Origin: Candidatus Dormiibacterota bacterium
GTDB taxonomy: Bacteria; Chloroflexota; Dormibacteria; Aeolococcales; Aeolococcaceae
Assembly: GCA_003131685.1 (NCBI GenBank)
Contig: PKWB01000036.1
Coordinates: forward strand, 3,846-38,530
Length of the DNA stretch: 34,685 nucleotides
Reading direction: 5' to 3'
The notes below the pieces were generated by a model. That model was not told the origin of the DNA and searched no databases. It saw nothing but the letters and a program-made list of their open reading frames with translations. Positions 6,347 to 34,685 of this stretch are shown piece by piece (within the stretch, counting starts at the first letter, position 1; every line of letters begins with the position of its first letter). Made by a program: the position numbers and the translations under genes.

Positions 6347-6785
6347 GTGCGATCACCGACGCTATCTGAGGTTTCGAGCATCGACCTCACAAGGCAGGTC
6401 TTGGCGCGACGCCAGCAAGATCAGTGCTGAGGGTCGGTGCTTTGCCGCGAGCAGGTTCCGGCATAACAGCAGCGTAAGACCATCCACCAATAAAGTGGAG
6501 TGCGTCATGAGTGACGTAACCGTCAGCGGCGGCGCCACGCTCCAATAGCTCTGATCGTTGCACCGGGCACTACGCTGCTGCCATCACAGGTCTGGAGGGT
6601 AGCGTTCACGGTTCCTGACCGCCCATCGGCGCCCGTGGCGACGAGAACCCCTCAACCGATTGCCAGAGAACGTCGACAGCAAACATGGTGATCTTTGGCA
6701 AACCATCCTGGGTGCCGAGTCCATGCGGCCCGAGGACAGGTCATACGTACCGGGACGCCGGATATCAGCGTCGTGAAGTTGTGTT

Positions 6786-20213: not shown

Positions 20214-20377
20214 GTATTCCCGCAACATTCAGCGGGAGGTGTTTACGCGTGACGAATGTGGCGTCCTAGACTAGGTCAGTCACTCCTTGCCTGCGGGTGT
20301 CTCGCCGTGTCCACCATCGCGAGGGAACTGGTCAAACGGGCGCTCGCGGTACGCCCCGAATTCGAATCCGTACCCGC

Positions 20378-20425
20378 GCCCTCGCACGGCAGAGGTCAGG
20401 GGTTCGAATCCCCTCCGCTCCACCA
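20378..20425 (+). mobile_element. 3' fragment of tRNA-Ala(CGC), probable att site of a genomic island
   Basis: gcc-ct-CGC-ac-GGCAG-AGGTC-AGGGG-TTCGAAT-CCCCT-CCGCTCC-ACCA gives the anticodon loop, T-arm, acceptor 3' strand and CCA. No D-arm or 5' acceptor strand upstream. Confidence 0.85.
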
Positions 20426-20446
20426 CCGGCTTCCTGGAGCCGGTTT
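20426..20446 (+). terminator. Probable intrinsic terminator after the tRNA 3' end
   Basis: CCGGCTT-cctg-GAGCCGG hairpin followed by TTT. Confidence 0.5.
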
Positions 20447-20521
20447 CGAATTCGATTCTCAGCATGGACGCGCGCCATCGCGCTGCTCACTCGGTTCCTC
20501 CACGGTAGACTTGAAACAGAC

Positions 20522-20595
20522 GGCGATGGAGCTCGCCGAAACCGCCTTCGTGACTGATGGCTCCTGTTCACGGCCCTAGCTGGGAGAACAGGAGC
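20522..20595 (+). ncRNA. Fluoride (crcB) riboswitch RS1 with expression platform
   Basis: GGCGATGGAGCTCGCC..AAACCGC..CTGATGGCTCCT; pseudoknot GGAGC/GCTCC. GCTCCTGTTC(20560-69) pairs with GAACAGGAGC(20586-95), hiding the SD. -10 TAGACT at 20506. Confidence 0.9.
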
Positions 20596-20600
20596 ACGCC

Positions 20601-22229
20601 ATGGCAGACGGAACATCCCAGGACCCCGACCTGCTCGGCGGCCAACCGGGCAGCGCCAGCGGCGAACCGCCTTCGACGTCAGCGCCGCCCGCTCCTCACT
20701 TCACGAGCCTGCTGTTTGACGAGTCGTCGGGGAAGGCGGCTGTCCGACGCGAAGATCGCTCATCCGCATCTGACCTGAACCTCGACCAGATCGTCAAGAC
20801 CGTCACCGGAGTCCGGGAGGAGCGCGATTTCATCGCGGCCCTTCTTTACCAGCAGCTCGGCGACATCGATACTGTGCACTACCGCCACGAAGTCTATCGA
20901 GACTTGGAAGACCAGTCGCTCCTCGAACGGATTCAGCAATTTGCTGACCTGATGAGCAAGGTGCGCAGCCACCTGGGACAGGTCGAGAAGATGCAGTATC
21001 TTCATCAACGCGAGGGGTGGTTCCTGGACGCAGCCTCTATCTACTGTGATGCCGTCCGCGCCCTGGCGGATGGTCTGAGTTCTGCGCGACTCGATTCCCG
21101 CGCCCTTCGTGCTTTCAGCGCGTTCCTGACGGGTTATGTCGCGTCCGCGACATTCGAATCTCTCGTTGCCGATACGAGAGATCGGCAGGATGCGCTTGCT
21201 CAGATCCGCTATTGCATCCGCATCCGGGGCGGAAGAGTCGACGTGAGCCGCTACGAGGACCAAGCCGACTACAGCGCTGAGGTGCTGAAGACGTTCGAGC
21301 GATTCAAGCAGGGTGCCGTCAAAGACTACCGACTCAACTACCGCACGTGGCCGGGCATGAACCACGTCGGGGCACAGATCCTTCAGCTGGTGGCGCGGCT
21401 GTTCCCTGACGAGTTCTCGGCATTGGATGACTACTGTCGCCAGCACGCCGAGTTCCTGCACGAGACCGTCCGGCGCTTCGAGCGTGAGCTCCAGTTTTAT
21501 CTCGCCTATCTCGATTACATCGGCCCGCTCCGAGCAGCCGGACTCAGCTTCTGCTATCCGGATGTGACCGCGGCCTCGAAAGAGATTTTCGCCAACGACA
21601 CCTTCGACCTGGCGCTCGCCAAGAAACTGGTCTCGGAGGGCAAGCCTATCGTGCGTAACGATTTCCGCATGGAGGGTCCCGAGCGCATCTTCGTGGTCTC
21701 CGGGCCGAACCAGGGAGGCAAGACGACGTTTGCCCGAGCGTTCGGTCAGCTCCACCACCTGGCCAGCGTTGGCTGCCCCGTTGCCGGCACTGCCGCTCGT
21801 CTTTTCCTCTTCGACCGGCTCTTCGTCCATTTCGAGAGGAAGGAGGATCTCACGAACATGCGCGGCAAGCTGGAGGACGACCTCGTGAGGATCCGAAAGG
21901 TACTGCAGGCGGCAACGTCCAACAGCATCGTCGTCATGAACGAGATCTTCACGTCGACGACGCTGAGCGACGCTCGCTTCCTGGGCAAGAAGGTGATGGA
22001 GAAGGTCATCCAGCTCGATGTGCTGTGCGTCTACGTGACATTCGTCGACGAGCTGGCGTCCCTCGGCGAGTCAGTCGTCAGCTTGGTAAGTACGATCGTT
22101 CCAGAGAACCCAGCCCAGCGCACCTACAAGGTGGTCAGGGGACCCGCCGACGGGCTCGCTTATGCGCTGGCTATCGCTGAGAAGCACAACGTCACTTACG
22201 AGCGTTTGCGGGCACGGCTGAGCGCATGA
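20601..22229 (+). CDS. MutS-related ATPase (domain V), first of a tandem pair
   Basis: GPNQGGKTT, FDRLFVHF, GKLEDDL, VVMNEIFTSTT. No mismatch-binding domain I or Smr domain apparent. Confidence 0.9.
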   Translation: MADGTSQDPDLLGGQPGSASGEPPSTSAPPAPHFTSLLFDESSGKAAVRREDRSSASDLNLDQIVKTVTGVREERDFIAALLYQQLGDIDTVHYRHEVYRDLEDQSLLERIQQFADLMSKVRSHLGQVEKMQYLHQREGWFLDAASIYCDAVRALADGLSSARLDSRALRAFSAFLTGYVASATFESLVADTRDRQDALAQIRYCIRIRGGRVDVSRYEDQADYSAEVLKTFERFKQGAVKDYRLNYRTWPGMNHVGAQILQLVARLFPDEFSALDDYCRQHAEFLHETVRRFERELQFYLAYLDYIGPLRAAGLSFCYPDVTAASKEIFANDTFDLALAKKLVSEGKPIVRNDFRMEGPERIFVVSGPNQGGKTTFARAFGQLHHLASVGCPVAGTAARLFLFDRLFVHFERKEDLTNMRGKLEDDLVRIRKVLQAATSNSIVVMNEIFTSTTLSDARFLGKKVMEKVIQLDVLCVYVTFVDELASLGESVVSLVSTIVPENPAQRTYKVVRGPADGLAYALAIAEKHNVTYERLRARLSA

Positions 22230-23812
22230 AAGCCTATCTCCTCCACCAGGAGCAAGACTTCAACTTCGTCGCTGACCTGCCCCCCAATCACGACGACCTG
22301 ATTCAGGACCTGGAACTGACGACGCTGCTCGAGGCGATGGCCCTCGGCGACAAGTTCCTCTACGAGGTGTCAGCGAGAGTCGTCCTGGCAAGCCTCGGCG
22401 ACCCGGAAGCCATCCTCTACCGCCAGCGAGTCCTCGCGGACTGCATCGCTGAGCCGGAGATCATCAGAGAGATGTACGCCATCGCCGTGGGCGCGCTCGA
22501 GGACAAGCGAGGAATCTGGGGGTACGGCTCCCAAAGCCCTTCGCTGATCCTCTCTGCCGCGGTCCGCCAGCTCGAGGCCGCCGTCATCCGGCTCAAACAA
22601 CTGCGAAAGATAGCCGACGACCGCGCGGAGAGGTTCCACTCCGCCGGCTTGACGACGCTCTTTCGCACTCTGCAGCGTGAATTGGACGACGAGTACTTCA
22701 TGACGATGGGCTACCACCTGAAGCAGCTCCGCTTCCGCAATGGGGAGCTGCTCAGTGCGGAACTCGATCGGGACAACAGTGGGATCGGCTTCGTGCTCCG
22801 CTCATCTGGCAGCGTGAAACGGAACTGGAAGGAACGCCTGGGAATGGGCTCTCGTTCCTCGTACTCGTTTACCATCCCGCCGCGTGACGACGCGGGTGCC
22901 AACGCCCTGTCAGATCTCACCAGTCGAGGGATCAACCTCGTCGCCAACGCGGCGGCCCAGTCCGCAGACCACATTTGGAGCTACTTCACGATGCTCCGCG
23001 GGGAGTTGGGCTTCTACGTAAGCTGTCTCAACCTTTGCAACCGGCTCGCAGTCAAGGAGGTGCCGATCTCGTTTCCCGCACCGTCATCGTGGTCCCAGCG
23101 CGTGCTTTCGTTCTCCGGCTTGCGCGATATCTGCCTCGCGCTGCGTGCGGAGCAGCGGGTCGTTGGAAACGACATCGAGGCGAACGGAAAATCGCTGATC
23201 ATCATCACCGGCGCGAACTCCGGAGGAAAGTCGACGTTCCTGCGCAGCGTCGGTCTGGCTCAGCTCATGATGCAGTGCGGCATGTTCGTGGCCGCGGAGG
23301 CCTATTCCGCGAGGGTGTGTGGCGGAGTCTTCACGCACTTCATCAGAGAAGAGGACTCCACCATGACCAGCGGGCGACTCGATGAGGAGCTGAGCCGCAT
23401 GAGCTCGATCGCGGATCAAATCCGTTCCCATTGCCTCATGCTCTTCAACGAGTCCTTCGCCGCTACCAACGAGCGCGAGGGATCCGAAATCGGGCGCCAA
23501 GTTGTCCGTGCGCTGCTGGAGGCTGAGATTACGGTGTTCTTCGTCACCCATCAGTTCGATTTTGCGAACGGATTCCACAGCCAGCGCGCAGAGTCCACCC
23601 TCTTCCTGAGAGCCGAGCGACAATCCGAGGGCCAGCGCCGCTACAAGCTCGCGGTAGCCGAGCCACTTCCGACGAGCTTTGGCGAAGATGTCTACTACCA
23701 GCTCGGCGGGTGGCTGGACAGCGACGAGGACCCCGACTCGCCCTCGGGGAGCGCGAGGGAGGCCTCGGCCAGCAACCTCGACACCAGCGGTCGCGTCCGA
23801 CAGGCTGAATAA
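22226..23812 (+). CDS. MutS-related ATPase (domain V), second of a tandem pair
   Basis: GANSGGKST, AQLMMQCGMFV, GRLDEEL, LFNESFAATN, VTH. ATGA overlap with the partner gene. Confidence 0.9.
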   Translation: MKAYLLHQEQDFNFVADLPPNHDDLIQDLELTTLLEAMALGDKFLYEVSARVVLASLGDPEAILYRQRVLADCIAEPEIIREMYAIAVGALEDKRGIWGYGSQSPSLILSAAVRQLEAAVIRLKQLRKIADDRAERFHSAGLTTLFRTLQRELDDEYFMTMGYHLKQLRFRNGELLSAELDRDNSGIGFVLRSSGSVKRNWKERLGMGSRSSYSFTIPPRDDAGANALSDLTSRGINLVANAAAQSADHIWSYFTMLRGELGFYVSCLNLCNRLAVKEVPISFPAPSSWSQRVLSFSGLRDICLALRAEQRVVGNDIEANGKSLIIITGANSGGKSTFLRSVGLAQLMMQCGMFVAAEAYSARVCGGVFTHFIREEDSTMTSGRLDEELSRMSSIADQIRSHCLMLFNESFAATNEREGSEIGRQVVRALLEAEITVFFVTHQFDFANGFHSQRAESTLFLRAERQSEGQRRYKLAVAEPLPTSFGEDVYYQLGGWLDSDEDPDSPSGSAREASASNLDTSGRVRQAE

Positions 23813-23947
23813 CAGCATTACGCTGCCTCGGACGACATCGCTCCGACCCTGTCTCTCGAGCGCTAGAACGCATCTGACGTGACGAGATGATTCTCAACCG
23901 AATCGACCGAGGCGTCGGATCCGATGTTCAGTGGTAGAGTCCCGGCT

Positions 23948-24031
23948 GGCGATGGGGCTCGCCACGGCACCGTGGGTGCCGGAAACGCGCTGAGCTAATA
24001 GCCCCTGACCACCATTAATGTGGAGGTTAGG
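23948..24031 (+). ncRNA. Fluoride riboswitch RS2 with expression platform
   Basis: GGCGATGGGGCTCGCC..AAACGC..GCTAATAGCCCCT; pseudoknot GGGGC/GCCCC. The CCTGACC..GGTTAGG hairpin covers GGAGG. Extended -10 TGGTAGAGT at 23932-23940. Confidence 0.85.
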
Positions 24032-24073
24032 GTGCCCGTCGCCATCGCAGTTGGACGACCAGCCGGATGCTAG
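24032..24073 (+). CDS. Putative 13-aa leader ORF (MPVAIAVGRPAGC)
   Basis: GTG lies 5 nt after GGAGG; the ORF end overlaps ATG 24067 (ATGCTAG). Confidence 0.4.
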   Translation: MPVAIAVGRPAGC

Positions 24074-25014
24074 CGGCCGCACTCGGCCAGTGCGTTGCAG
24101 TGGCGACCGTCCTGCTGCTCGCGCCACTCCTCAAAGGAGGCATCGACAACCTCAAGGCGAAGATCCAGTCGCGGCGGGGACCGTCCCCGTTCCAGCCCTA
24201 CTTCGACCTGCACAAGCTCTTTCGCAAGGAGCGTTCGGCGAGCCGGGATGCCTCCTGGGTCTTTCGGAGCGCACCCTACGTGGCGTTCGCAGCGCCGATA
24301 GCCTTTGCGATGTTGATCCCGGTGCTCACCGCAGCGCCACTGAGCTGGGCGTTCATGGCCGATATGGTGGGTAGTGGGTTCGTCATCGGCATCGGTGGCT
24401 ACTTCACCAACCTCGCTGCTATGGACAGCGCCAGCCCCTACGGTGGACTCGGAGCAAGCCGCTCCCGGCTTGTGTCATCCCTCGCGGAGCCGACGCTCAT
24501 CCTCATCTTCTTCGCGATCGGGTTCATCTCGGGTGGGACGGTCCCGTTCGTCGCGAACAACATCCTATACACCACATCCGCGCTGATCTCACCCAGCCAC
24601 GCGTTGATAGCGGTCGCGTTTTTCCTGGTCGTCCTCGCTGAGGCGGGCCGCCTCCCGATCGACAATCCGAGCACGTCACAGGAGTTGTCGATGATCGAGG
24701 CCTCCAGGCTCTTCGAATATTCAGGGCCCGACCAGGCACTGATGGAGTGGGGAGGATGGATGAAGCTGTTCGTGCTCCTCATCGTCTGGCTCAACGTTCT
24801 GATTGCCCCGGACGGCCTCGCCACTCAGTTGACCGTCTCTGCATTCGCCATCGCGATCGCGAGCCTCGCAGCCAAAATGCTGTGCGCTGCATTACTCATC
24901 GTGGGGGTGGAGTCGGCTCTTGCCAAGATCCGCATCCTGCGAGTGCCCGAGTATCTCGGCGGCACTTTCGTGCTCTCGTTCCTGGCGGTCGTGATGTACA
25001 GCCTGGGGCGCTGA
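24067..25014 (+). CDS. hyfC: Ehr/Hyf membrane subunit, NuoH/HycD/HyfC-like
   Basis: KAKIQSRRGPSPFQPYFDLHKLFRKE, LAEAGRLPIDNP, EYSGPD; multiple TMs. Confidence 0.92.
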   Translation: MLAAALGQCVAVATVLLLAPLLKGGIDNLKAKIQSRRGPSPFQPYFDLHKLFRKERSASRDASWVFRSAPYVAFAAPIAFAMLIPVLTAAPLSWAFMADMVGSGFVIGIGGYFTNLAAMDSASPYGGLGASRSRLVSSLAEPTLILIFFAIGFISGGTVPFVANNILYTTSALISPSHALIAVAFFLVVLAEAGRLPIDNPSTSQELSMIEASRLFEYSGPDQALMEWGGWMKLFVLLIVWLNVLIAPDGLATQLTVSAFAIAIASLAAKMLCAALLIVGVESALAKIRILRVPEYLGGTFVLSFLAVVMYSLGR

Positions 25015-25661
25015 TGGCACTCGCAGAGGCGGTGCTCGCCACGCTCATCCTCATCGCCACGTTTGGGCTCCTGATCGCGCGACAAGTCCGCGGCGCGATC
25101 ACCGGGTATGCGGCGCAGTCGATCCTCCTCGGGGGGCTCGCGATCGCGATGTTCGCGGGCTCGCGTTTGCCACATCTCCTTGCCTTGGGACTCCTCACGA
25201 TCGGCATCAAGGGTTTCGCCATACCGGCGGTCGTCAGGTTCCAGGTTCGGGGGCCCACCTACCGCCGGCGCGAGATCGCCTATTACGTCGGCTTTCCGAC
25301 AGCGTTGCTCGTCGGCGCCGGCCTCTCGCTCGTCGGATTGGTTGCCGCATCGCGCCTGCCGTTTCATCCCTATCTGTTGTCGGAGCCCGTGCTCGGCCTG
25401 GCCATCGCGGTGATTTTGCTCGGCCTATTCACCACCATGGCGAGACGTGACGCGGTGCTGCAACTCGCAGGCCTCCTCGCCGCGGAGAACGGAGTGCTGC
25501 TCGTCGGGTTGGTGGTGAGTCCGGAGTTGGGCTTGCTGATCGAGTTCGCGCTTGTCCTCGATGTCGTCATCGGGGTTGCGGTGATGGGGTTTCTCATCGC
25601 TCGGATGCACGAGACGGTCGCGAGCACGGACACGTCTGAACTTTCGAGGCTGCGCGGATGA
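25014..25661 (+). CDS. hyfE: Ehr/Hyf membrane subunit HyfE-like
   Basis: YAAQS, IKGFAIP, LLAAENG, C-terminal LSRLRG. TGATG coupling at 25012-25016. Confidence 0.88.
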   Translation: MALAEAVLATLILIATFGLLIARQVRGAITGYAAQSILLGGLAIAMFAGSRLPHLLALGLLTIGIKGFAIPAVVRFQVRGPTYRRREIAYYVGFPTALLVGAGLSLVGLVAASRLPFHPYLLSEPVLGLAIAVILLGLFTTMARRDAVLQLAGLLAAENGVLLVGLVVSPELGLLIEFALVLDVVIGVAVMGFLIARMHETVASTDTSELSRLRG

Positions 25662-27133
25662 CCGACCCCGGACTGCTCGTACTGGTGGTGGCCCTCCCAC
25701 TGGTGGCCGCGCTCATCAGCCTCGTCTGCTCCGCTCGTCTTCAGATAGCGCTGGCGCTCGTGTTCCAGGTCGGGACGTTCGGCGTCGCGCTGGCGCTGAT
25801 CGCCCGCATATTGGTGGTGGGGAGGATCGATGCCTTCGCGCACTGGCTCTACCTCGACAGCCTTTCGGCCGTCGTCATGCTCGTAGCGGCGGTCGTGTCT
25901 GTGCTCGCAACGTTTTACTCCGCGGGATATCTTCGCCACGAGCTGCAGCATCGAGTCATCAAGACCGACGAGCTGCGCAAGTACTTCGTCCTTTTTCATC
26001 TGTTCGTCTTCGCCATGCTGCTGGTCACCATTGCGGGGAACCTCGGGTTGCTCTGGACGGCGATCAGTGCCACGACGTTGGCGTCAGCTCCTCTCGTGGA
26101 CTTCTATGGCTCCCACGAACCGCTCGAGGCCGCCTGGAAGTACATCGTGCTCACCGTCGCCGGCAGCCTGCTCGCGCTTCTCGGACTGCTCCTGCTCTAC
26201 CAGTCCGGAGTGGCATCGCTCGGCAACTCATACGACTTCTCGATCCCTGTGCTCGCCGGCGCGGCATCGCATCTCTCCCCGACACTGGCGTCCACAGCCT
26301 TCCTGCTCATTCTCGTCGGCTTCGGCACCAAGGCTGGGCTGGCTCCCATGCATACCTGGCTCCCCGACGCGCATAGCCAGGCGCCATCACCCATCTGCGC
26401 GATGCTGTCCGGTGCCGAGCTGAACTGCGCGATGCTCGGTATCTTTCGCGTCTACACACTCACTGCACCGGCCGCAGGTGCCGCGACGCTGCGCACCGGC
26501 ATGCTCGTCTTCGGGCTCGTGTCCATGAGCGTCGCGGTCGTTTTCTTGATCAGCCAGCGCAACTTCAAACGCCTGCTTGCGTACTCCTCCGTCGAGCAGA
26601 TGGGGTTGATCTCGGTTGGCGTCGGGCTGGGGAACCCGGTGGCGCTGATCGGCGCACTCCTTCTGGTGGTCACGCACGGCTTTACCAAGTGCCTCATGTT
26701 CTTTGCCACCGGCAATCTGGTGCTCCGGTTCCGGAGCACCACGATCCCGGAGATACGAGGAGTCGTCAGGGCGATGCCGTGGACTGCGGTGCTCCTGATC
26801 GGCGGCGCCCTCGCCATTGCCGGGGCACCGCCCTTCGGCGTCTTCATCTCGGAGTTTTCCATCATCGCAGGCGCATTTGCAGGCCATTTCTGGGTGCTGG
26901 GCGCGCTTGTCGCGGCGCTCCTCCTGCTCGGGTTCATCCCGCTGGTCGCGCCATTCCACAGAATGACGTTCAGCAACGCGGACACCGGTGGCGAGGTGGC
27001 TCAGGCAGAGCTGAGCGCCGTGACGCTGCTGCCGGCGCTGGTGCTGCTGGGCGCAGTCCTGGTGATCGGCGTGTGGATCCCGAATCCCCTCAATCAGTTG
27101 CTCCACCACGCCGCGGCGGTGATGACGAGATGA
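25658..27133 (+). CDS. hyfF: Ehr/Hyf antiporter-like subunit HyfF
   Basis: LEAAWKY, GFGTKAGLAPMHTWLPDAHSQAPSP, KRLLAYSSVE, GAPPFGVFISEF. Confidence 0.92.
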   Translation: MTDPGLLVLVVALPLVAALISLVCSARLQIALALVFQVGTFGVALALIARILVVGRIDAFAHWLYLDSLSAVVMLVAAVVSVLATFYSAGYLRHELQHRVIKTDELRKYFVLFHLFVFAMLLVTIAGNLGLLWTAISATTLASAPLVDFYGSHEPLEAAWKYIVLTVAGSLLALLGLLLLYQSGVASLGNSYDFSIPVLAGAASHLSPTLASTAFLLILVGFGTKAGLAPMHTWLPDAHSQAPSPICAMLSGAELNCAMLGIFRVYTLTAPAAGAATLRTGMLVFGLVSMSVAVVFLISQRNFKRLLAYSSVEQMGLISVGVGLGNPVALIGALLLVVTHGFTKCLMFFATGNLVLRFRSTTIPEIRGVVRAMPWTAVLLIGGALAIAGAPPFGVFISEFSIIAGAFAGHFWVLGALVAALLLLGFIPLVAPFHRMTFSNADTGGEVAQAELSAVTLLPALVLLGAVLVIGVWIPNPLNQLLHHAAAVMTR

Positions 27134-28668
27134 CCACACTGCGCGAACTGGCCCAGAAATTCGGCCTCGCGATCGAAGGGGGCGCGCCTCAGGAGCTGCG
27201 GACCCAGTGCGCTCCAGAAGAGTTCCTGGGCGCCGTCACAGCGCTCGCGGCCGAAGCTGTGCTTGCGGACCTTTTTGCCGTCACAGGCCGCGGCCAACCC
27301 TCGCTGACTGTTGTATTCGAGTTGGCGGGCGATGCTGAGTGGCTCGTGCTCCGCACCCAGCTGAGCGGCGATTCCTTCCCATCGCTGACACCCTCCACTC
27401 ACGTCGCGAGCTGGTATGAGCGCGAGATCCGCGAGATGCACGGTTTGAATCCGGTGGGACACCCGGCTCTGGCGCGACTGCGCCTGCACGACTGGCCCGT
27501 GGGTCAGCCGCCGATGCGCGCGGCGCTGGAACGCAGGCTCGACGTCGGGCCCGGCGTGCCGAGCCCGGTCCCGATAGTCCATGGGCAGGGCGTGTTCCAG
27601 CTGCCCCTCGGGCCGGTGCGAAGCGGTCCGCAGGAATCCGGTGAATTTCTCTTCAACAGCGGCGGGGAGGATCTCGTCGCGGTCAGTCAGTTGCTGGGCT
27701 TCAAGCTCCGTGTCGTCGAGCGTTTGGCGGAGGGGCGCACCGTCGATCAGGCGCTCATGCTCGCGGAGCGGCTCGCGGGTGTCTCCGCGTTCTCCAACGC
27801 GCTCGCGTTTGTGCAGGCAGTGGAACGGGCGATGGCAGTCGACGTCGGTGAGCAGTCCCGGGCGGCGCGGACCCTGATGAACGAGTTGGAACGCTTGCAC
27901 AATCACTTCGGCGATATCGCTCGTCTCGCTGACGCGACCGGGCTGATGGTCGCGGGTGCGCAGTACGCGTCCCTGAAAGAAGAAGTGCTGCGCCACTGTG
28001 CCGCCTTGACCCAGCATCGGTACCTGCGCGGAATCCTGGCTGTGGGAGGCCTGCAGGCGCCGCTCCCTGATGCTGCGTTGCACGCCCTGCGAAGGCGGCT
28101 CGCGGACTGGCTTCGGCGCAGCGAGCGGCTGGAGCGGCTGCTGGAGGACACGGCAGTCTTCGTCGACCGTGTGGAAACCACCGGCGTGCTCACCAAGGAG
28201 TACGCGGCACCACACAACCTGGTGGGCCCGATCGGACGCTCCACCGGGGCGGACAGGGATTGTCGCCGCGATCATCCGTATGCGGGATACGACCGGGTGA
28301 CTTTCGACGTGCTCGTCAAATCGCAGGGCGACGCGCTGGCGCGTCTCAGCGTCCGTCTGTTCGAGATCCGACAATCGATCCGGATCATCGAGCAGGTTTT
28401 GGAGGCATGGCCGGGATCGGACGTGGCGGCGTCAGTGAGCGCGCCCGCCACCGGGGAGGCGCTCGGATGGTCCGAGGGCGCCGGCGGCGAGACCCTGCAC
28501 TCGGTGGCGCTGACCGCCGATGGGCGGATCGCGCGCTGGCGCGCCCGCCCTCCTGCGTTCGTCAACTGGCATCCGTACGCAGAGGCATGTGCGAGCGGCA
28601 ACAACCTGACCGATTACCCGGTAATCGAGGCGAGCTTCGGGCTTTCGCATGCGGAGTTCGACCGGTGA
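27130..28668 (+). CDS. Ehr large subunit (NuoC+NuoD/HycE-like) lacking Ni-binding cysteines
   Basis: WYEREIREMHG (NuoC-like), ELERLHNH, GPIGRSTG, GDALAR. The L1 site reads ERLAGVS and the L2 site SFGLSHAEFDR (no CxxC). Start ATG 27130. Confidence 0.9.
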   Translation: MTTLRELAQKFGLAIEGGAPQELRTQCAPEEFLGAVTALAAEAVLADLFAVTGRGQPSLTVVFELAGDAEWLVLRTQLSGDSFPSLTPSTHVASWYEREIREMHGLNPVGHPALARLRLHDWPVGQPPMRAALERRLDVGPGVPSPVPIVHGQGVFQLPLGPVRSGPQESGEFLFNSGGEDLVAVSQLLGFKLRVVERLAEGRTVDQALMLAERLAGVSAFSNALAFVQAVERAMAVDVGEQSRAARTLMNELERLHNHFGDIARLADATGLMVAGAQYASLKEEVLRHCAALTQHRYLRGILAVGGLQAPLPDAALHALRRRLADWLRRSERLERLLEDTAVFVDRVETTGVLTKEYAAPHNLVGPIGRSTGADRDCRRDHPYAGYDRVTFDVLVKSQGDALARLSVRLFEIRQSIRIIEQVLEAWPGSDVAASVSAPATGEALGWSEGAGGETLHSVALTADGRIARWRARPPAFVNWHPYAEACASGNNLTDYPVIEASFGLSHAEFDR

Positions 28669-29501
28669 GCCGCTGGATTGCGCTGGGGATCCGCACGGGT
28701 GTCCGGAGCACACGCTATCCCTCGCGTCCCGATCCCGAAGCCGAGATCGCTCCGTCGGCTGTGACCGTGGACATCGCGGCGTTGTCAGCGGTGCAGGCTC
28801 TGGAGGCGGCTGACATGTGCCCGACGACCGCGATCACCGCGGCGGGTGACCGCGACAAGGGCAGCATCGCATTCGATGCCGGCCAATGCGTGATGTGCGG
28901 TCGGTGCGTGCGCGCCTTTCCGGCCGCATTCTCGTATGGTCACGGTCCGGAAGTTGCGGTTCACTCAAGGGAGGCCCTTCGGGTCGCCGCGCACTGGGCC
29001 GACGGCTCTGGTCCCGCGGTCGACGAGACGGCCGTGACCGACGAGTTGCAACGGCGTTCCCAGGCCCTCTTTCGGCGTTCTCTTCACATCCGGCATGTGG
29101 ACGCCGGATCGTGCAACGGGTGTGAGTCCGAACTGCAGCTCCTCGGCAGCCCGCAGTACGACCTTAACCGGCTGGGGCTCTTCTTCACGCCGACGCCTCG
29201 CCACGCCGACGCGCTGCTCGTGACGGGCGTGGTGACGCGGCAGATGGAACAGCCCCTCAAGGACACGTACGAGGCGATGCCCAGTCCAAAGCTTGTCGTG
29301 GCAGCGGGCGTCTGCGCCGTCGGCGGTGGAGCTTTCGAGGGTGGGTTCATGGTCCGCGGACCGCTCGACCGGATCCTCCCCGTCGACGTCTATGTCCCCG
29401 GGTGTCCGCCGACGCCGCTCGCTCTGCTCCATGGGCTCCTGCTCGCCGTCGGACGCGCTGAAGAACGCTATCGCCCAGGTGGAGGCCCCCATGGCGCTTA
29501 G
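28665..29501 (+). CDS. Ehr small subunit (NuoB/HycG-like) with N-terminal ferredoxin (HycF/NuoI-like) domain
   Basis: GSCNGCE, PRHAD, GVCA, PGCPP; N-terminal MCP..CVMCGRC. Start GTG 28665. Confidence 0.9.
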   Translation: MSRWIALGIRTGVRSTRYPSRPDPEAEIAPSAVTVDIAALSAVQALEAADMCPTTAITAAGDRDKGSIAFDAGQCVMCGRCVRAFPAAFSYGHGPEVAVHSREALRVAAHWADGSGPAVDETAVTDELQRRSQALFRRSLHIRHVDAGSCNGCESELQLLGSPQYDLNRLGLFFTPTPRHADALLVTGVVTRQMEQPLKDTYEAMPSPKLVVAAGVCAVGGGAFEGGFMVRGPLDRILPVDVYVPGCPPTPLALLHGLLLAVGRAEERYRPGGGPHGA

Positions 29502-31578
29502 CCTGCTGTGGTACGGACTTGGCTGCCTCGGGATCGGCGTTGTCGGCGCTCTGGCCGTCCTGCGGCTGCCGTGGTTCATCTACGTCTCAGCCGCGGCCGG
29601 CGCCGTCGGGTGCGCCGTGCTCGCGTCCGCGGCGGGAGTGTGGCTGACCGGTGCGAGCGTCACGGCCAAGCTGCCCGCGAGCACGCCCATCGGTGCGTTC
29701 GAACTTCGCTCATCAACGCTCGGCGGCTTGTTCCTCCTCCTGATCGGGCTGGTCGGGATCGGCATCTTCGTGTACAGCGCCGCATACACCGCGCGACTCG
29801 GCGGGTATCCGCGGCAAGCGGCGAGTCTTGCGCTCCTCAATCTGACCTTCGCCGCCATGGTCATCGTGGTCGCCGCAGGCACCGCGCTCACGCTGCTCCT
29901 TGCGTGGGAGGCGATGTCCATCCTCACCTACGTCCTCGTCACGGTCGAGTTCGATCACCCGGGCCGACCTCAGGCAGCCTTTCTCATGCTCGCGCTGAGC
30001 GAGGTGGGCTTCGTGCTCATGGCCGTCGCTTTCGCGCTCATCGGCGCGCTCGCCCCGGGAGTGGATTTCGCCTCGGTCTCGGCCCATCACCTCACAGCGG
30101 CAACTGCGGGAACGGCATTTGTGCTCTTCTTCTTCGGCTTCGGTGCGAAGGCGGGGTTGGTGCCCCTGCAGGGCTGGCTCCCCGAGGCCCATCCCGCGGC
30201 TCCATCACACGTGTCGGCGCTGCTCTCAGCCGTGGTGGTGAAGATGGCGATCTACGGTCTCGTCCTCTCGGCCACCGTGCTGCTCGGCCCTCCGGCCTCG
30301 TGGTGGGGATACCTCGCCATCGCCGCGGGGGTGGTCACCGCTGCCTATGGGATTCTCTTCTCCTTGCTGGCATCGGACCTCAAACGGGCGCTTGCCTACA
30401 GCACGATCGAGAACCTCGGGTTCATGATCGCCATGCTCGGGGTCGCTTTGGTCTTCGCCGCTGCGGGACAGACTCTGCTTGCGGGCATGGCATTGCTGGT
30501 GGTCTGCTTGCACGCTCTGTATCACTCCCTCTTGAAGGGGGCGCTGTTCTTGGGCGCGGGCTCTGTCGATGTCGCCACCGGCATCCGCGACATGGACCAG
30601 CTGGGCGGACTCGCGAAGCGGATGCGGTGGACGACGCCACTCTTCTTCATCGGCGCCATGGGTCTCGCCGGCATCCCGCCGCTGAACGGCTTCCAGAGCG
30701 AGTGGCTCGGGCTGCAAACGCTGATCCGCGCCCACGACCTTGTCAACCCTGGAGATCGTGTGTACCTTGCGGCGGCCGGCACGGTGTTGACGCTCACGTT
30801 TGCGCTTGCGGTCACCACGTACGTCCGCATCGTTGGCGGAGCGTTCCTCGGCGCCCCGCGCACGCATTTCGCCAAGGAGGCGCGCGAGGTGCCGCGCGCC
30901 ATGGTGGTGGGGATGGCAATTCCGATCGTCGCAGCTGTGGCGATGGCGTTGGTGCCGCCGCTCGGGATCGGTGCAGCAGCGGCAGCCGCCCAGAGCGCAA
31001 GTGGAGCGCACGGGCTGTTGGACGCAGTGCTTCCACCGATCTTCACGCACCCGGACCAATTCGCCCCCGTGGTGCAGCTGGGTGGGTCGTTCCTCAGCCA
31101 GATCATTCCAGCAAACGGTCTGGTGATCGTCCCAACCAGCCTCAACTTCGCCTTCATCTCCCCGACCTACATCTTCCTCACGTTCGTCTTCGTGATCCTG
31201 GTCACGGCAGCCGTGTTGCGCATGCTATGCAAGCCGGGACGCCGCGAAACGCCAGTGTGGGTAGGGGCGGTGGCACAGCGCACGCCAACGATGCAGTACA
31301 CGGCGACCGCGTTTACCAACCCGTTCCGGTCGATCTTCGGAGGCGTCTACCGATCGCAACGCGAGGTCGAAGCGGACTACCAACAGGCGCCATTCTTCAT
31401 CCGAGGCATTCGCTACACACATCGCTTTGTCGAGCCCGTCGACACCTATATCTACCAGCCCGTGGTGCGCGCTGCACGGTGGATGTCTGATCGGTTTGCG
31501 TTTGTACAAGGGGGCAGTCTCAGTGTGTACGTGCTCTATCTCTTCGTGGTGTTCCTGATCGTTTTGCTGCTGCGTTAA
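29491..31578 (+). CDS. hyfB: Ehr/Hyf antiporter-like subunit HyfB/HycC
   Basis: GGAGG SD; AWEAMS, KAGLVPLQGWLPEAHPAAPSHVSALLS, LAYSTIEN, PPLNGFQSEW, MQYTATAF. Confidence 0.92.
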   Translation: MALSLLWYGLGCLGIGVVGALAVLRLPWFIYVSAAAGAVGCAVLASAAGVWLTGASVTAKLPASTPIGAFELRSSTLGGLFLLLIGLVGIGIFVYSAAYTARLGGYPRQAASLALLNLTFAAMVIVVAAGTALTLLLAWEAMSILTYVLVTVEFDHPGRPQAAFLMLALSEVGFVLMAVAFALIGALAPGVDFASVSAHHLTAATAGTAFVLFFFGFGAKAGLVPLQGWLPEAHPAAPSHVSALLSAVVVKMAIYGLVLSATVLLGPPASWWGYLAIAAGVVTAAYGILFSLLASDLKRALAYSTIENLGFMIAMLGVALVFAAAGQTLLAGMALLVVCLHALYHSLLKGALFLGAGSVDVATGIRDMDQLGGLAKRMRWTTPLFFIGAMGLAGIPPLNGFQSEWLGLQTLIRAHDLVNPGDRVYLAAAGTVLTLTFALAVTTYVRIVGGAFLGAPRTHFAKEAREVPRAMVVGMAIPIVAAVAMALVPPLGIGAAAAAAQSASGAHGLLDAVLPPIFTHPDQFAPVVQLGGSFLSQIIPANGLVIVPTSLNFAFISPTYIFLTFVFVILVTAAVLRMLCKPGRRETPVWVGAVAQRTPTMQYTATAFTNPFRSIFGGVYRSQREVEADYQQAPFFIRGIRYTHRFVEPVDTYIYQPVVRAARWMSDRFAFVQGGSLSVYVLYLFVVFLIVLLLR

Positions 31579-31701
31579 GCCCGTGCTCATCGCGATGCAG
31601 TCGATCGAACGAGCGCCAGCCATCCTCGCCGTGGCCACCCTCAGGGTCGCCAATTCGACATCCACCCCTGTGAAATCGAGGTACTCACAACCGGTGGCAG
31701 C

Positions 31702-33342
31702 TCAGCCTCCACGCAACGAGTGGCGAACGGACTCGACCCGGGCCCGAACATCGCTGGAATCAGCGATGGTCGCTTCGTGCCGTTCCGCCGCAAGCTCGGC
31801 CCGGGCAACCGCGCCGGCCAAGGCCTCACTGAGCCCGCGGGAGGATCGTTCCGCCTCGCGGATCCATGCACGAGCCGTCCGATCGACGCTTTGCAACGCC
31901 GCGTAGCGCAGCCGACCGGCAAGGCGGTCGGAGTCCTCGACCGCGCGTTGTTTGCGAGCTCGCTCCCGCCACCTCCTACCGACACCGCCGGGGACGCGAG
32001 CCCGGACCTGGCGTAGACCCATGGCCAGCGCACCCGGGTCATCCGCCAAGTCCACCCTGACGGCGTCCACGTTGACACGAGGTGAGACGTCGAACCCAGT
32101 GGGGAGAATCACGCCGTAGGCCTGACCGACCTCCGCGACAAAGCGCGTGGCCAGCTGCTGTACCCGCGCCGTATGCCGGTCGACCGGGCCACGCATTGCT
32201 GCAATGAGCGCTTCGCCCACCTCACGCCGCCACGAACCGGCGGCAGCTGCGGTTTGATCCGACCATGCAGCATCTGTCGCCGCGATCAGCCGAGGAGGTA
32301 GCGCTTCGCGCAGTTCGTGCGCTCTCGGCTCGATGACCGTGTCCGTCGCGCGCCGGCATGCTGCGAGGAGCAGCGCCGACTCCTCGTCGACTGCGACTGC
32401 GAGCGTGGCTTGCGCGGCTGCGAACGCCGTGCGCGCCGCCACTGCATCTCGTGCCGGCTTGGCTGCCGCCGCCGCTTCGAGTTGGAGCGTTGCGTCGACG
32501 AGCGACAACAGTGTCGTGGCAACGCGGACGCCACGCTCCTCCGAGAGGTTGGTCTGAGCAGCGGCGACATCGGTTTTTAGCCAGGCCGTCAGCGCTCCCA
32601 GACCGGTATCCCCACCTCCGCCGCGCGCTGATACGGCGAACACGGTGACATCCGACGTGCTGCACGGCTCCGCCACCCGGGCACGTACGAATTCAACCGC
32701 CTCCCGCGTCTCGCTCGGCGTCAGCCGATCGACCTTGTTGAGGCAGACGGCGATACGCGCGGCTGTGCGTGCCACGTCTCCGAGCAGTCGTGCTTCCGAG
32801 TCGGAGAGCGGGGCGTCCACGCTCAAGACGAGCAGCGCGACATCGACTCGAGGCAGAAAGTCAATTGCAGCCTGGGTGTTGTGGAGGTGGACACTGCCGG
32901 TGCCAGGCGTATCCACGAATATCAGGCCGCTCTCGAGCACCGCGGCCGGAAACTCGATGATCGCCTCGCGCACACCCTTACGGTTTCCCGGGTTCTCCTG
33001 CTCCGTGAGGTAGCCGTGTAGCCCCGCGATGTCGCTCGCCTCCTCCGAGCCGTCCAGGAGGCGGACCACTACTCGTGGCCGCATGCCGAAGCGCACCAGT
33101 GCCGGGACCGCAGTCACCGGGAGCACTCCCGTCGGCAGCAGCTCCGCACCGAGGAGTGCGTTGATGAGCGTCGTCTTGCCACGGTTGAACTCGCCGATCA
33201 CGGCGACATACAGGCCGCTCCCGGCGAGCTTGTCGGCTGCCTCCTCGGCAAGCTGCCGCTGCGCAATCGGCAGCAGTTCCAGCGATGCGAGCGTCCGGAG
33301 CCCCGCTTCGAGGGAGGCTCCGGCGGTGTGCGTGTCTCTCAC
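31702..33342 (-). CDS. Bacterial dynamin-like GTPase
   Basis: G1 GEFNRGKTT, G2 GVLPVT, G3 DTPG, G4 NKVD; helical Ala-rich C-terminal stalk. Confidence 0.9.
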   Translation of the reverse strand: MRDTHTAGASLEAGLRTLASLELLPIAQRQLAEEAADKLAGSGLYVAVIGEFNRGKTTLINALLGAELLPTGVLPVTAVPALVRFGMRPRVVVRLLDGSEEASDIAGLHGYLTEQENPGNRKGVREAIIEFPAAVLESGLIFVDTPGTGSVHLHNTQAAIDFLPRVDVALLVLSVDAPLSDSEARLLGDVARTAARIAVCLNKVDRLTPSETREAVEFVRARVAEPCSTSDVTVFAVSARGGGGDTGLGALTAWLKTDVAAAQTNLSEERGVRVATTLLSLVDATLQLEAAAAAKPARDAVAARTAFAAAQATLAVAVDEESALLLAACRRATDTVIEPRAHELREALPPRLIAATDAAWSDQTAAAAGSWRREVGEALIAAMRGPVDRHTARVQQLATRFVAEVGQAYGVILPTGFDVSPRVNVDAVRVDLADDPGALAMGLRQVRARVPGGVGRRWRERARKQRAVEDSDRLAGRLRYAALQSVDRTARAWIREAERSSRGLSEALAGAVARAELAAERHEATIADSSDVRARVESVRHSLRGG

Positions 33343-33346
33343 ACCG

Positions 33347-33400
33347 TCACAGCGCCAATTTCGCGCGATCCCCGATGGGGAGGGCTCGACAACTACCCAT
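33347..33400 (-). CDS. Putative 17-aa leader ORF (MGSCRALPIGDRAKLAL)
   Basis: ATG follows the hairpin-sequestered AGGAG; the stop is 4 nt before the dynamin GTG. Confidence 0.4.
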   Translation of the reverse strand: MGSCRALPIGDRAKLAL

Positions 33401-33404
33401 GCGT

Positions 33405-33473
33405 CTCCTACCAGTGACGCGGCTGGTAGGGCCCATCAGGCTCGCACGGCCATTGACGGCGGGACCCATCACC
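33405..33473 (-). ncRNA. Fluoride riboswitch RS3 with expression platform
   Basis: Minus strand GGTGATGGGTCCCGCC..CTGATGGGCCCTAC. CCTACCAG/CTGGTAGG hairpin overlaps AGGAG. TGtTATTCT -10 near 33497-33505. Confidence 0.85.
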
Positions 33474-33552
33474 GGGTCGCACTTCGCGGCGATCTCAGAA
33501 TAACACCGGCCGCCGCTCATGCAGGGCCGGCAGCGAGAGTACACTCAGACCC

Positions 33553-33618
33553 GGCGATGAGGCCCGCCTAAGCCGGGGTCCGGATGATGGCTTCTACCCA
33601 TGTCGATGCTGGGAGAAG
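33553..33618 (+). ncRNA. Fluoride riboswitch RS4 with expression platform
   Basis: GGCGATGAGGCCCGCC..ATGATGGCTTCTAC; pseudoknot GAGGC/GCTTC. CTTCT-a-CCCA/TGGG-AGAAG hairpin lies over the SD. -10 TACACT at 33540. Confidence 0.85.
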
Positions 33619-33622
33619 ACCA

Positions 33623-33649
33623 ATGCTGACACGCCACGGCCGTGCATGA
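33623..33649 (+). CDS. Putative 8-aa leader ORF (MLTRHGRA)
   Basis: ATG after GGGAG; the stop overlaps the USP start (GTGCATGA). Confidence 0.35.
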   Translation: MLTRHGRA

Positions 33650-34118
33650 GGTCATTGTCGTCTGCGTTGACGGCTCGCCCGGGGGCTATGCGGCCGTCGC
33701 CGAAGCCGCCGAACTCGCCTGCCGTTTCAACGCGCGACTGATCTCGCTCTCCGTCGAAGAGAAGCTACCAAAACATCCCGCCACCATGGGCGAGGTCGAC
33801 GAGTCCAAACGCGAGCAGGACTGGTACTTCGAAGGCGTCGAAGCGAAGGCCGCGGGGATCGCTCGCGAACATCACGCCACGCTGACATCTGAAGTGCGCA
33901 TGGGTTCTGCCGCGGAGGCGATCGTGCGTTTTGCCACCGAGGTCGGCGCAGATCTGGTCGTGCTCGGCTACAAGGAGCATTTCCGGATTCTCAATCTCGT
34001 GATGGGGACAACTGCCAGGAAGGTCAGCGCGGCAGCAAATGCGTCGGTGCTGATCGTCAAGACAGCGCGTGCAGACGTCGGGCGTCAACGTCTGCGTGAG
34101 TTGTACGGCTTGAAGTAG
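33642..34118 (+). CDS. Universal stress protein (UspA family)
   Basis: IVVCVDGS, GSAAEAIV..ADLVVLG, VMGTTARKV, SVLIVK. Confidence 0.92.
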   Translation: MHEVIVVCVDGSPGGYAAVAEAAELACRFNARLISLSVEEKLPKHPATMGEVDESKREQDWYFEGVEAKAAGIAREHHATLTSEVRMGSAAEAIVRFATEVGADLVVLGYKEHFRILNLVMGTTARKVSAAANASVLIVKTARADVGRQRLRELYGLK

Positions 34119-34136
34119 CTACGGGGACACGTCGAC

Positions 34137-34152
34137 TGGTACTATTAGTACC
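34137..34152 (+). promoter_or_regulatory. Extended -10 (TGGTACTAT) overlapped by a 15-bp palindrome
   Basis: GGTACTA-T-TAGTACC at 34138-34152, upstream of RS5 and the IclR gene. Confidence 0.6.
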
Positions 34153-34171
34153 GTCTCGCGTGTCGCGGTCC

Positions 34172-34236
34172 GGCGATGGGTCTCGCCGTGAAAGGCTTCG
34201 TGCCTGATGGGCCCTACCAGCTACCCCTGGTAGGAG
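34172..34236 (+). ncRNA. Fluoride riboswitch RS5 with expression platform
   Basis: GGCGATGGGTCTCGCC..CTGATGGGCCCTAC. CCTACCAG(34213-20) pairs with CTGGTAGG(34227-34), overlapping AGGAG. Confidence 0.88.
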
Positions 34237-34248
34237 AACCATCGAGCG

Positions 34249-34685
34249 GTGCCCAGACCGATTCAATCCATCGAACGAGCCTCGGCCGTCCTTCGATTGC
34301 TGTCGGGGCGCACCCGACGGCTCAGCCTCGCCGAGGTGGCGGGCGAGTTGGGCCTTCCCAAGGGCACCGTCTACGGGATCATGCGCACCCTTCTGTCGGT
34401 CGGCTTCGTCGAGCAGGATCCGGAGTCGGGCAAGTACCGGATGGGTGCAGCGCTCCTGCACCTCGGCAGCAGTTATCTTGACGGCAACGAGCTGCGCACC
34501 CGAGCGCTCAACTGGGCGGACTGGCTGGCCGCGCGTACCAACGAGAGCGTGCGTCTCGGCACCCTGCACGACGGTCAGGTGCTGCTCGTGCACCATGTGT
34601 TCCGCCCGGACAACAGCCCGCAGGTGCTCGAGGTGGGCGCGCTGCTGCCCATGCACGCGACGGCGATGGGCAAGGTGCTGCTCGC
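34249..34685 (+). CDS. gylR: IclR family regulator, GylR-like (glycerol operon regulator); 3'-truncated, absent from the ORF track
   Basis: Manual translation: VPRPIQSIERASAVLRLLSG..LSLAEVAGELGLPKGTVYGIMRTL..GFVEQD..HHVFRPDNSPQVLEVGALLPMHATAMGKVLL, closely resembling Streptomyces GylR as recalled. Confidence 0.85.
   Translation, partial: MPRPIQSIERASAVLRLLSGRTRRLSLAEVAGELGLPKGTVYGIMRTLLSVGFVEQDPESGKYRMGAALLHLGSSYLDGNELRTRALNWADWLAARTNESVRLGTLHDGQVLLVHHVFRPDNSPQVLEVGALLPMHATAMGKVLL

Follow-up and report, generated by a model that had tools for sequence, protein, structure and literature searches.

A predicted nickel-free relative of Hyf and complex I behind a fluoride-type riboswitch aptamer in Candidatus Dormiibacterota

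The window analyzed here is a stretch of 34,685 nucleotides from a Candidatus Dormiibacterota bacterium (contig PKWB01000036.1, our C125, positions 3846-38530) with a G+C content of 61-68%. The genome amounts to 3.78 Mb in 210 contigs and is 76% complete. Our subject is the plus-strand segment 23939-31578, in which a fluoride-type riboswitch aptamer is followed by a leader open reading frame (ORF) of 13 codons and then by the genes hyfC, hyfE, hyfF, a large subunit gene, a small subunit gene and hyfB (Table 1). A first-pass annotation had begun this region at 23932, only 7 nt before the match to the fluoride riboswitch model of Rfam (RF01734), and had read it as a fluoride-controlled operon for an Ehr complex devoid of nickel. 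According to PMC6349859, Ehr complexes are homologs of group 4 [NiFe] hydrogenases and complex I which lack the Ni/Fe-coordinating residues, contain Mrp-like antiporter subunits and have no known function. The analysis below suggests that the operon encodes a complex of this type, and it indicates that the aptamer accompanies one clade of such operons.

The six genes were assigned to families individually (Table 1); the gene starts are likely starts chosen from the ORFs. The HyfE-like protein gave no match in a Pfam scan. All six proteins score under the curated cut-offs of the NCBIfam equivalog models which they match, and we therefore treat them as relatives of the named Hyf and Nuo proteins, not as members of those families. 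Successive reading frames overlap by 1 (TGATG), 4 (ATGA), 4 (ATGA), 4 (GTGA) and 11 nt; these overlaps, together with the family matches, bear out the earlier description of six translationally coupled genes. No other gene lies between the aptamer and the convergent downstream gene, and the identical six are present in every locus long enough to show them. An electron-input partner of the FdhF or HycB/HyfA type was not found in the operon, either by a Pfam scan of the window ORFs or in the related loci, and the Pfam scan also found no genes for NuoEFG, the NADH-oxidizing module. A scan of positions 20300-34685 was uninformative: it returned no promoter-like site, and its 7 terminator-like sites compare with a chance expectation of 8.3. 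Four sequencing runs were compared with the locus. Run X20, a peat metatranscriptome, contained 23 contig pieces of 190-270 nt, 90-99% alike, which cover parts of hyfC/hyfE, the large and small subunit genes, hyfB and the leader of the Usp gene; such contigs cannot show transcription, and they may come from DNA carry-over or from relatives. Run X23 contained no pieces matching the locus, while runs X12 and X13 are probably DNA.

The large subunit contains both of the motifs ERLAGVS and SFGLSHAEFDR. The alignment with E. coli HycE (7z0s_E), which had been suggested as a check, places RLAGVS on RvCGiC, and in an alignment of 150 representatives SFGLSHAEFDR falls on the SLDPCYSCTDR or SFNLCYSCTDR of relatives that bear the cysteines. 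The four positions of the Ni ligands are occupied by A216, S219, S506 and E509. None of them is a Cys in this protein, nor in any of the 121 sequences comprising the query and its 120 best homologs. The first-pass annotation was thus correct in placing the two motifs where group 4 hydrogenases have their Cys motifs. The replacing motifs are themselves highly conserved in the 121 sequences (ER[LI][AS]G[TVI]S and SF[GAS][LI]S.A[EG].D[RC]), and 25 large subunits with 40-87% identity have 76 invariant columns in common, which argues that the protein is under constraint. The last residue of the large subunit is the Arg after which cleavage of HycE-type proteins takes place; the endopeptidase-type tail of 29-32 residues that these carry has no counterpart here. 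No maturation gene was found among the window ORFs scanned against Pfam, as had been noted before, and HypD (PF01924) was not found in the 76%-complete genome, the other hyp genes not having been searched for. A canonical NuoD is present on another contig of the genome. Since none of the four ligand cysteines is present, HypD was not found, the C-terminal extension is missing and no FdhF/HyfA-type partner accompanies the genes, the sequences indicate that neither a standard [NiFe] hydrogenase nor a standard formate hydrogenlyase is encoded here, in agreement with the earlier reading.

The aptamer in front of the operon is a variant. A hairpin of 16 nt is inserted after P1, the pseudoknot reads GGGGC/GCCCC instead of GGAGC/GCUCC, and CUAAUAG stands in place of the CUGAUGA of the Rfam consensus. 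A scan of the full window at the Rfam gathering score reports as the sole fluoride riboswitch the one at 20513-20573 (46.1 bits), which precedes the MutS-domain genes and not the operon. We examined the leaders of related operons with R1, a search model made from five local aptamer copies. A plus-strand match to R1 was found 3.1-3.7 kb upstream of the large subunit gene, just before hyfC, in 42 of 52 related genome loci; the genome of one of the 42, L042, is flagged unpublished. Nine of the ten loci that R1 missed have less than 2.7 kb of upstream sequence. The tenth, L046, has 3.46 kb but without hyfC, hyfE and hyfF there, and it is the single negative among the 43 loci with at least 3.4 kb upstream. 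With a limit of E <= 0.01 per genome, a run of the Rfam model over the 42 whole genomes detected 36 of these leaders, and in other lineages the leader of this operon scores 34.6-56.8 bits. Over 103 matches the positions of P1 and the pseudoknot are 98.6% paired; 99 cells are changed on both sides, and 8 of the 10 pairs are double-changed. None of 500 shuffles was as high, and slid controls were 38-54% paired. The alignment used for this count was fitted to our own model and leans towards P1, while the pseudoknot lies outside the model. Conservation of position, detection by the independent Rfam model, covariation, and the occurrence of different expression platforms with the same logic all show that a chance match does not account for the aptamer in front of this operon.

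The expression platform was examined in the minimum free energy (MFE) fold. In this fold the aptamer 3' strand CCCCUGACCACC pairs with GUGGAGGUUAGGG, and the latter contains the Shine-Dalgarno (SD) sequence GGAGG at 24022-24026. Because the stop codon of the leader ORF overlaps the ATG of hyfC, its translation looks coupled to that of hyfC. All 11 type-A loci (11 of 11) have a leader ORF of 12-15 codons, the end of which invariably lies 4-7 nt beyond the start of hyfC; the peptide is not conserved. The platforms differ between lineages: the clade of the window has the SD-sequestering hairpin, whereas loci of the Ktedonobacteria and Bacillota types use a U-run terminator overlapping the aptamer 3' strand. 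The modeled fold suggests an ON-type switch which acts via the coupled leader ORF, with fluoride as the probable ligand. The proposal of fluoride riboswitch control holds, then, in that an aptamer with an ON-type platform leads the operon; it is weakened in that this aptamer is a divergent, sub-threshold variant whose ligand is inferred.

Several leaders in related genomes show further peculiarities. Two or three tandem fluoride aptamers precede the operon in Bacillota-type loci (L063:6375-6679; L062:5043-5238 and 7417-7629). In seven Dormibacteria-type loci (L022, L025, L027, L030, L031, L038 and L057) a short aptamer lies 121-294 nt before hyfC and is followed by AGGAG and a conserved small ORF with a TTG start and similar N-terminal peptides; this ORF may encode a seventh small protein or be a longer leader ORF. 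In L014, the closest full-length relative, an enolase gene (5407-6836, minus strand) lies directly upstream of the operon aptamer in divergent orientation. It is split over two ORFs and is possibly frameshifted. Enolase is a classic target of fluoride.

Next we asked how far the pairing of aptamer and operon extends. A search of 1.84 billion representative sequences gave 5709 relatives of the large subunit at E <= 0.001 and 462 at E <= 1e-30. The alignment comprised 150 sequences, namely the query and 149 of the best 150 representatives; all four Cys are present in 24 of them, and most of the remainder lack them, in many different ways. In 80 metagenome loci of other relatives (23 with Cys, 57 without) the model R2 detected no credible aptamer, and a scan at the Rfam gathering score, covering 11 of these loci, likewise gave none. 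These control operons start with hyfB and many of their 5' ends lie near or past the fetched flank, so more weight was placed on a genome sample from the same phylum with flanks of 10 kb. In this sample the aptamer lies directly upstream of hyfC in all three testable operons with hyfC first and hyfB last. Among hyfB-first operons showing at least 4.5 kb of upstream sequence it was absent from all 13, of which six have Cys and seven, from small genomes, are Cys-less. A FastTree phylogeny of 139 large subunits places the 54 from hyfC-first operons on one side of a branch with an SH-like support of 99; this tree has no root, and its details are unsure owing to the long branches of L063 and L168. 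The count of fluoride riboswitches among Ehr operons which the first-pass annotation had called for has two sides, with 42 of 43 in the related loci, 3 of 3 in the hyfC-first operons of the sample and 0 of 13 in its hyfB-first ones. The switch marks one clade with hyfC-first order, and not Ehr complexes in general.

Large subunits without the four ligand Cys also occur outside this clade. In L173-L176 and L179-L181, small single-contig genomes of the same phylum, hyfB-first Hyc-like operons encode a large subunit without any of the four Cys, with the motifs E.[IV]SGDESAAN ... S[LM]NLSYAG.D, and have no fluoride aptamer. Because these operons are Cys-less but hyfB-first and without the aptamer, the loss of the cysteines seems to have happened more than once.

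The residues associated with Fe-S clusters and with the membrane arm are largely retained. The small subunit has eight Cys, four in an N-terminal half-HycF-like ferredoxin domain (C52, C75, C78, C81) and four in the NuoB/HycG-like domain to which it is fused (C150, C153, C217, C247). Conservation was counted in the window and 49 related loci (n=50). The four NuoB-type cluster Cys are retained in 47-48 of the 50, with L020 as the exception; the four ferredoxin-type Cys (C52 and CxxCxxC) are retained in 38-41, across the Dormibacteria-type clade. The HyfB-like and HyfF-like subunits align to MbhH, HycC and MrpA/D. In the HyfB-like subunit E140, K220, K298 and K349, which align with charged channel residues of MbhH and HycC, are retained in 39-40 of 40 sequences, and in the HyfF-like subunit K225, K304 and K344 are retained in 50 of 50. 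The HyfC-like subunit has the acidic loop motifs common with HycD. Taken with the missing Ni ligands and the two PF00361 subunits, this subunit homology supports the view that the operon encodes a Ni-free complex of Ehr type.

The operon lies in an island of six fluoride-type aptamers within about 15 kb of contig, five recognized by RF01734 and one, rs6, by R1 only (Table 1). The counterpart of rs6 in L014 is an RF01734 match at 20.2 bits. The strongest aptamer of the island is followed by the MutS-domain pair. The set of MutS pair, operon, dynamin-like GTPase, Usp gene and IclR-type gene recurs beside the operon in L014, L022 and L036. One protein of the MutS pair matches the NCBIfam model for the lysine 5,6-aminomutase reactivase ATPase KamC, albeit under its cut-off. 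The possibility that the pair forms an ABC-type exporter was ruled out, since hydropathy shows no hydrophobic segments. In 16 further riboswitch-controlled regions of related genomes the MutS-domain pair is the commonest target (7/16), followed by the dynamin-like GTPase (6); the remaining three contain a second copy of the operon 5' end, a Na+/H+ exchanger and a DUF4129/AAA set. The aptamer rs5, just outside the window, is a near twin of the operon leader, with inserted hairpin and 3' tail alike, and a similar copy occurs at L013:9857-9937. It is flanked by an IclR-type gene, into which it reads in antisense, and by a gene for an MFS transporter; a convincing gene on the minus strand is lacking downstream. 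At the upstream edge of the island, 20323-20425 (plus strand) contains a tRNA-like element resembling the 3' end of a tmRNA (GGTTCGAATCC...CCACCA), followed by a hairpin. It matches RF00023 at 19.5 bits, far under the gathering score, and ARAGORN found no tRNA or tmRNA, including at this position. The element could be the remnant of an integration site.

Table 1. Aptamers, leader elements and genes of the operon region and its neighborhood (window coordinates unless stated otherwise).
Feature	Position	Strand	Evidence	Remark
Fluoride-type riboswitch aptamer (rs2)	23939-24014	+	RF01734 25.1 bits (gathering score 34); own model R1 57 bits	six-gene operon behind
Expression platform	24000-24034	+	MFE fold	same arrangement in type-A leaders of related loci
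Leader ORF, 13 codons	24032-24073	+		GTG start 5 nt past SD; stop overlaps hyfC ATG
hyfC-like, 315 aa	24067-25014	+	PF00146 E 4.4e-30; HycD 7z0s_D E 1.2e-30	HyfC/HycD/NuoH-like membrane subunit
hyfE-like, 215 aa	25014-25661	+	NCBIfam NF008556 'hydrogenase 4 membrane subunit' 61 bits (cut-off 136)	membrane subunit, ~6 hydrophobic segments (hydropathy)
hyfF-like, 491 aa	25658-27133	+	PF00361; MbhH 6cfw_H E 8e-36	antiporter-like subunit
Large subunit, 512 aa	27130-28668	+	PF00346, PF00329, PF00374; HycE 7z0s_E E 1.4e-53	NuoC-NuoD/HycE-like fusion
Small subunit, 278 aa	28665-29501	+	PF01058	weak half-HycF-like N-terminal domain
hyfB-like, 695 aa	29491-31578	+	PF00361; HycC 7z0s_C E 2.5e-48	HyfB/HycC-like antiporter-like subunit
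Aptamer rs1	20513-20573	+	RF01734 46.1 bits	MutS-domain pair behind
MutS-domain-V gene pair, 542 and 528 aa	20601-22229, 22226-23812	+	C-terminal MutS domain V only (ABC-type ATPase)	overlapping paralogs
Dynamin-like GTPase	33342-31702	-		converges on operon end
Aptamer rs6	33420-33482	-	R1 only, 38 bits; none by Rfam at E <= 1	dynamin-like GTPase behind
Aptamer rs3	33544-33603	+	RF01734 32.8 bits	Usp behind
Aptamer rs4	34163-34223	+	RF01734 18.9 bits	IclR-type regulator behind
Aptamer rs5	C125:38992-39072 = L009:2993-3073, just outside window	-	RF01734 30.5 bits	gene behind: none identified

From these observations we propose, with moderate confidence, that the operon encodes a fluoride-induced, Ni-free relative of Hyf and complex I, of Ehr type, which would work as a redox-driven cation pump. 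This reading fits best because the Fe-S clusters appear to be kept, the antiporter-like channel is complete and the expression is apparently switched by fluoride. Without fluoride the aptamer 3' strand would pair with the SD of the leader ORF; with fluoride bound, this strand would be held in the aptamer pseudoknot and the SD would be free. Translation of the leader ORF, with its stop overlapping the hyfC start, would then lead to translation of the six overlapping genes in turn. In the predicted complex the HyfB-like and HyfF-like antiporter-like subunits together with the HyfC- and HyfE-like subunits would form the membrane arm, and in the peripheral arm a NuoB-type [4Fe-4S] cluster would be accompanied, in this lineage, by another cluster of ferredoxin type. 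A low-potential donor such as ferredoxin could power the export of H+ or Na+ from the cell. As a 2024 review describes, entry of hydrogen fluoride (HF) acidifies the cytoplasm and lowers the proton-motive force, against which cells deploy exporters and Na+/H+ antiporters and adjust their metabolism (PMC11139923). The pump would restore the pH and the membrane potential collapsed by HF influx, independently of a fluoride-sensitive ATP supply. The Na+/H+ exchanger behind a fluoride aptamer in a related genome fits such a role in ion homeostasis. The part that the first-pass annotation suggested, in repairing pH or ion gradients or in exporting ions, would likewise agree with the conservation of the channel residues. 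How the switch turns on, how electrons flow, which ion is pumped and what the complex does for the cell are all predictions from sequence.

A number of findings weigh against this proposal. The operon aptamer scores 25.1 bits (E 4.8e-5 when 301 nt are searched, E 1.4e-4 over the whole genome) and stays under the 34 bits that Rfam sets as gathering score; only 4 of the 42 leader aptamers attain those 34 bits, and the fluoride specificity of the variant is assumed. The large subunit has Gly217 and Gln168 at the aligned positions of Tyr87 and His38 of T. thermophilus Nqo4, which we take to be the ligands of the quinone head group (the numbering was confirmed on the alignment). A quinone site of the complex I type is consequently not supported. 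No electron donor or acceptor was identified, and with both the Ni site and the complex I quinone ligands absent, the pump model is weakest at the electron acceptor. The distal ferredoxin-type Cys were not recovered in Ktedonobacteria-type members, in which sequence trimming may have lost a divergent N-terminus. At the position of the Glu in transmembrane helix 5 the HyfF-like subunit has S, and the 50 sequences show T in 21, E in 12, S in 9 and A in 6. Finally, the induction of the operon and its phenotype are deduced from the DNA.

The main rival of the redox-driven pump is a redox-independent, Mrp-like cation/proton antiporter, which would exchange Na+ or K+ for H+ and hold the internal pH, with the peripheral arm as a structural or regulatory cap. 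The lost catalytic site, the missing canonical quinone ligands and the lack of a redox partner gene in the operon all speak for it, and its antiporter-like subunits match the A and D chains of Mrp. Simple Na+/H+ exchangers are moreover targets of fluoride riboswitches, as in the related genome mentioned above; the 2024 review lists Na+/H+ antiporters as the second most common riboswitch-linked genes (PMC11139923). However, a cap without redox function would hardly account for the retention of the NuoB-type Cys in 47-48 of 50 loci and of the ferredoxin-type Cys throughout the Dormibacteria-type clade. The 76 invariant columns of the large subunit, in an alignment spanning 40-87% identity, also count against this rival. 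To our knowledge, Mrp antiporters need no such peripheral arm. The strict retention of the cluster ligands argues against this antiporter, and we consider it possible but rather unlikely.

The complex might also have a direct role in fluoride removal, either by moving the anion itself or by energizing an unrecognized exporter in lineages without CrcB. CrcB (PF02537) was not found in the 76%-complete genome of the window. It occurs in 5 of 42 genomes carrying the clade and in 0 of the 22 of those labeled Dormibacteria-type, and neither CrcB nor CLC is present in the 16 other riboswitch-controlled regions sampled. These counts come from incomplete and related genomes and are a lead, not a test. 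In a sample from the same class, CrcB was found in 5 of 15 genomes and the complex in none; 10 of the 15 have neither, which counts against this role. The genome of the window contains one CLC gene on another contig, which may be specific for F- or for Cl-, and the metagenome-assembled genomes are incomplete. Antiporter-like subunits are paths for cations and protons, and the sequences suggest no anion site. A direct role in fluoride removal therefore appears very improbable.

It is just as doubtful, if not slightly more so, that the leader is a diverged relative of the fluoride riboswitch which senses another ligand or is no longer regulatory. The score of 25.1 against 34 bits, the inserted hairpin and the CUAAUAG in place of the consensus CUGAUGA would agree with this. 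Against this stand the retention, with compensatory changes, of the core sequence, P1 and the pseudoknot, the scores above the threshold (34.6-56.8 bits) that leaders of this operon attain elsewhere, and the related aptamers, one at 46.1 bits, that precede the neighboring MutS-domain pair, Usp gene and dynamin-like GTPase gene. An active hydrogenase or formate hydrogenlyase that uses unconventional metal ligands, suggested by the overall homology to HycE, HycC, HycD and HycG and by public records of relatives that read 'Ni,Fe-hydrogenase III large subunit' or 'formate hydrogenlyase subunit 5', can practically be dismissed in view of the four missing Cys ligands, the failure to find HypD, the lack of an endopeptidase-type C-terminal tail and the absence from the operon of a formate dehydrogenase or HyfA/HycB-type partner.

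The redox-driven pump can be extended to a broader speculation, which we regard as distinctly unlikely in its full form. Acidic peat and permafrost soils harbor Dormibacteria-type bacteria that apparently have no CrcB, and in these the complex would be the core of an exporter-independent system of fluoride survival: a riboswitch-gated, ferredoxin-driven pump acting with the co-regulated MutS-domain ATPase pair and dynamin-like GTPase. The former Ni-Fe pocket, with its invariant Glu-Arg...Ser and Ser...Glu/Gly...Asp-Arg, would have a new role, and the complex might itself drive fluoride out. The apparent absence of CrcB raises the question of how these soil bacteria remove fluoride. Apart from fluoride, the retained Fe-S ligands argue that redox chemistry outlived the loss of the Ni site, which bears on the evolution of complex I from hydrogenases.

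The comparison with known systems places the complex closest to Ehr. As in Ehr, the large and small subunits are homologous to those of group 4 [NiFe] hydrogenases and to NuoD and NuoB (PF00346, PF00329, PF00374, PF01058), the Ni/Fe ligands are absent and two antiporter-like PF00361 subunits are present. Unlike other Ehr operons, this one begins with hyfC and ends with hyfB, has a small subunit fused from half of HycF and HycG, and carries a fluoride-type aptamer in front. A redox-coupled translocation of charge is suspected for Ehr (PMC6349859). The E. coli formate hydrogenlyase (Hyc, 7Z0S) is the best solved match for the large, HyfB-like, HyfC-like and small (HycG/NuoB type) subunits, and the large subunit is a NuoC-NuoD fusion like HycE. 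In contrast to Hyc and Hyf, the operon lacks the Ni ligands, the C-terminal processing tail, HyfA/HycB, HyfD and FdhF, and only half of a HycF-like ferredoxin is present, fused to the small subunit. The ligands of an N2-type cluster, the antiporter-like Lys/Glu set and a NuoH-like subunit are features of complex I; the Gly and Gln at Nqo4 Tyr87 and His38, the lack of NuoEFG and the presence of only two antiporter-like subunits are not. Compared with the seven-subunit Mrp antiporter (MrpA-G), only the A/D-like subunits are recognizable, in addition to the NuoB/CD-like arm.

The leader falls short of the RF01734 gathering score, but it exhibits the P1 and pseudoknot covariation and the competing platform in the 5' leader that characterize fluoride riboswitches. 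As in the published RF01734 regulon, the same RNA class stands ahead of the same gene types: the 2010 gene list for the crcB motif includes mutS, K+ and Cl- transport and formate hydrogen lyase (Weinberg 2010, PMC2864571). The formate hydrogen lyase link was repeated in papers from 2021 and 2024, and the 2024 review counts this enzyme among the most common ones associated with the riboswitch (PMC11139923). A literature search returned no paper that calls these genes a Ni-free complex or describes the link as clade-specific; the supplements of Baker 2012, Ren 2012 and Marreiros 2013 may bear on this. The clade limit of the riboswitch association is new here. The sequences indicate that in this clade the 'formate hydrogen lyase' genes are not a hydrogenlyase, which corrects a label carried in descriptions of the fluoride regulon since 2010. 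Ehr complexes are widespread and have no known function; one clade of them is now tied to a defined signal in the form of a fluoride-type aptamer, and this link offers a direct experimental handle, via NaF, on a complex of Ehr type.

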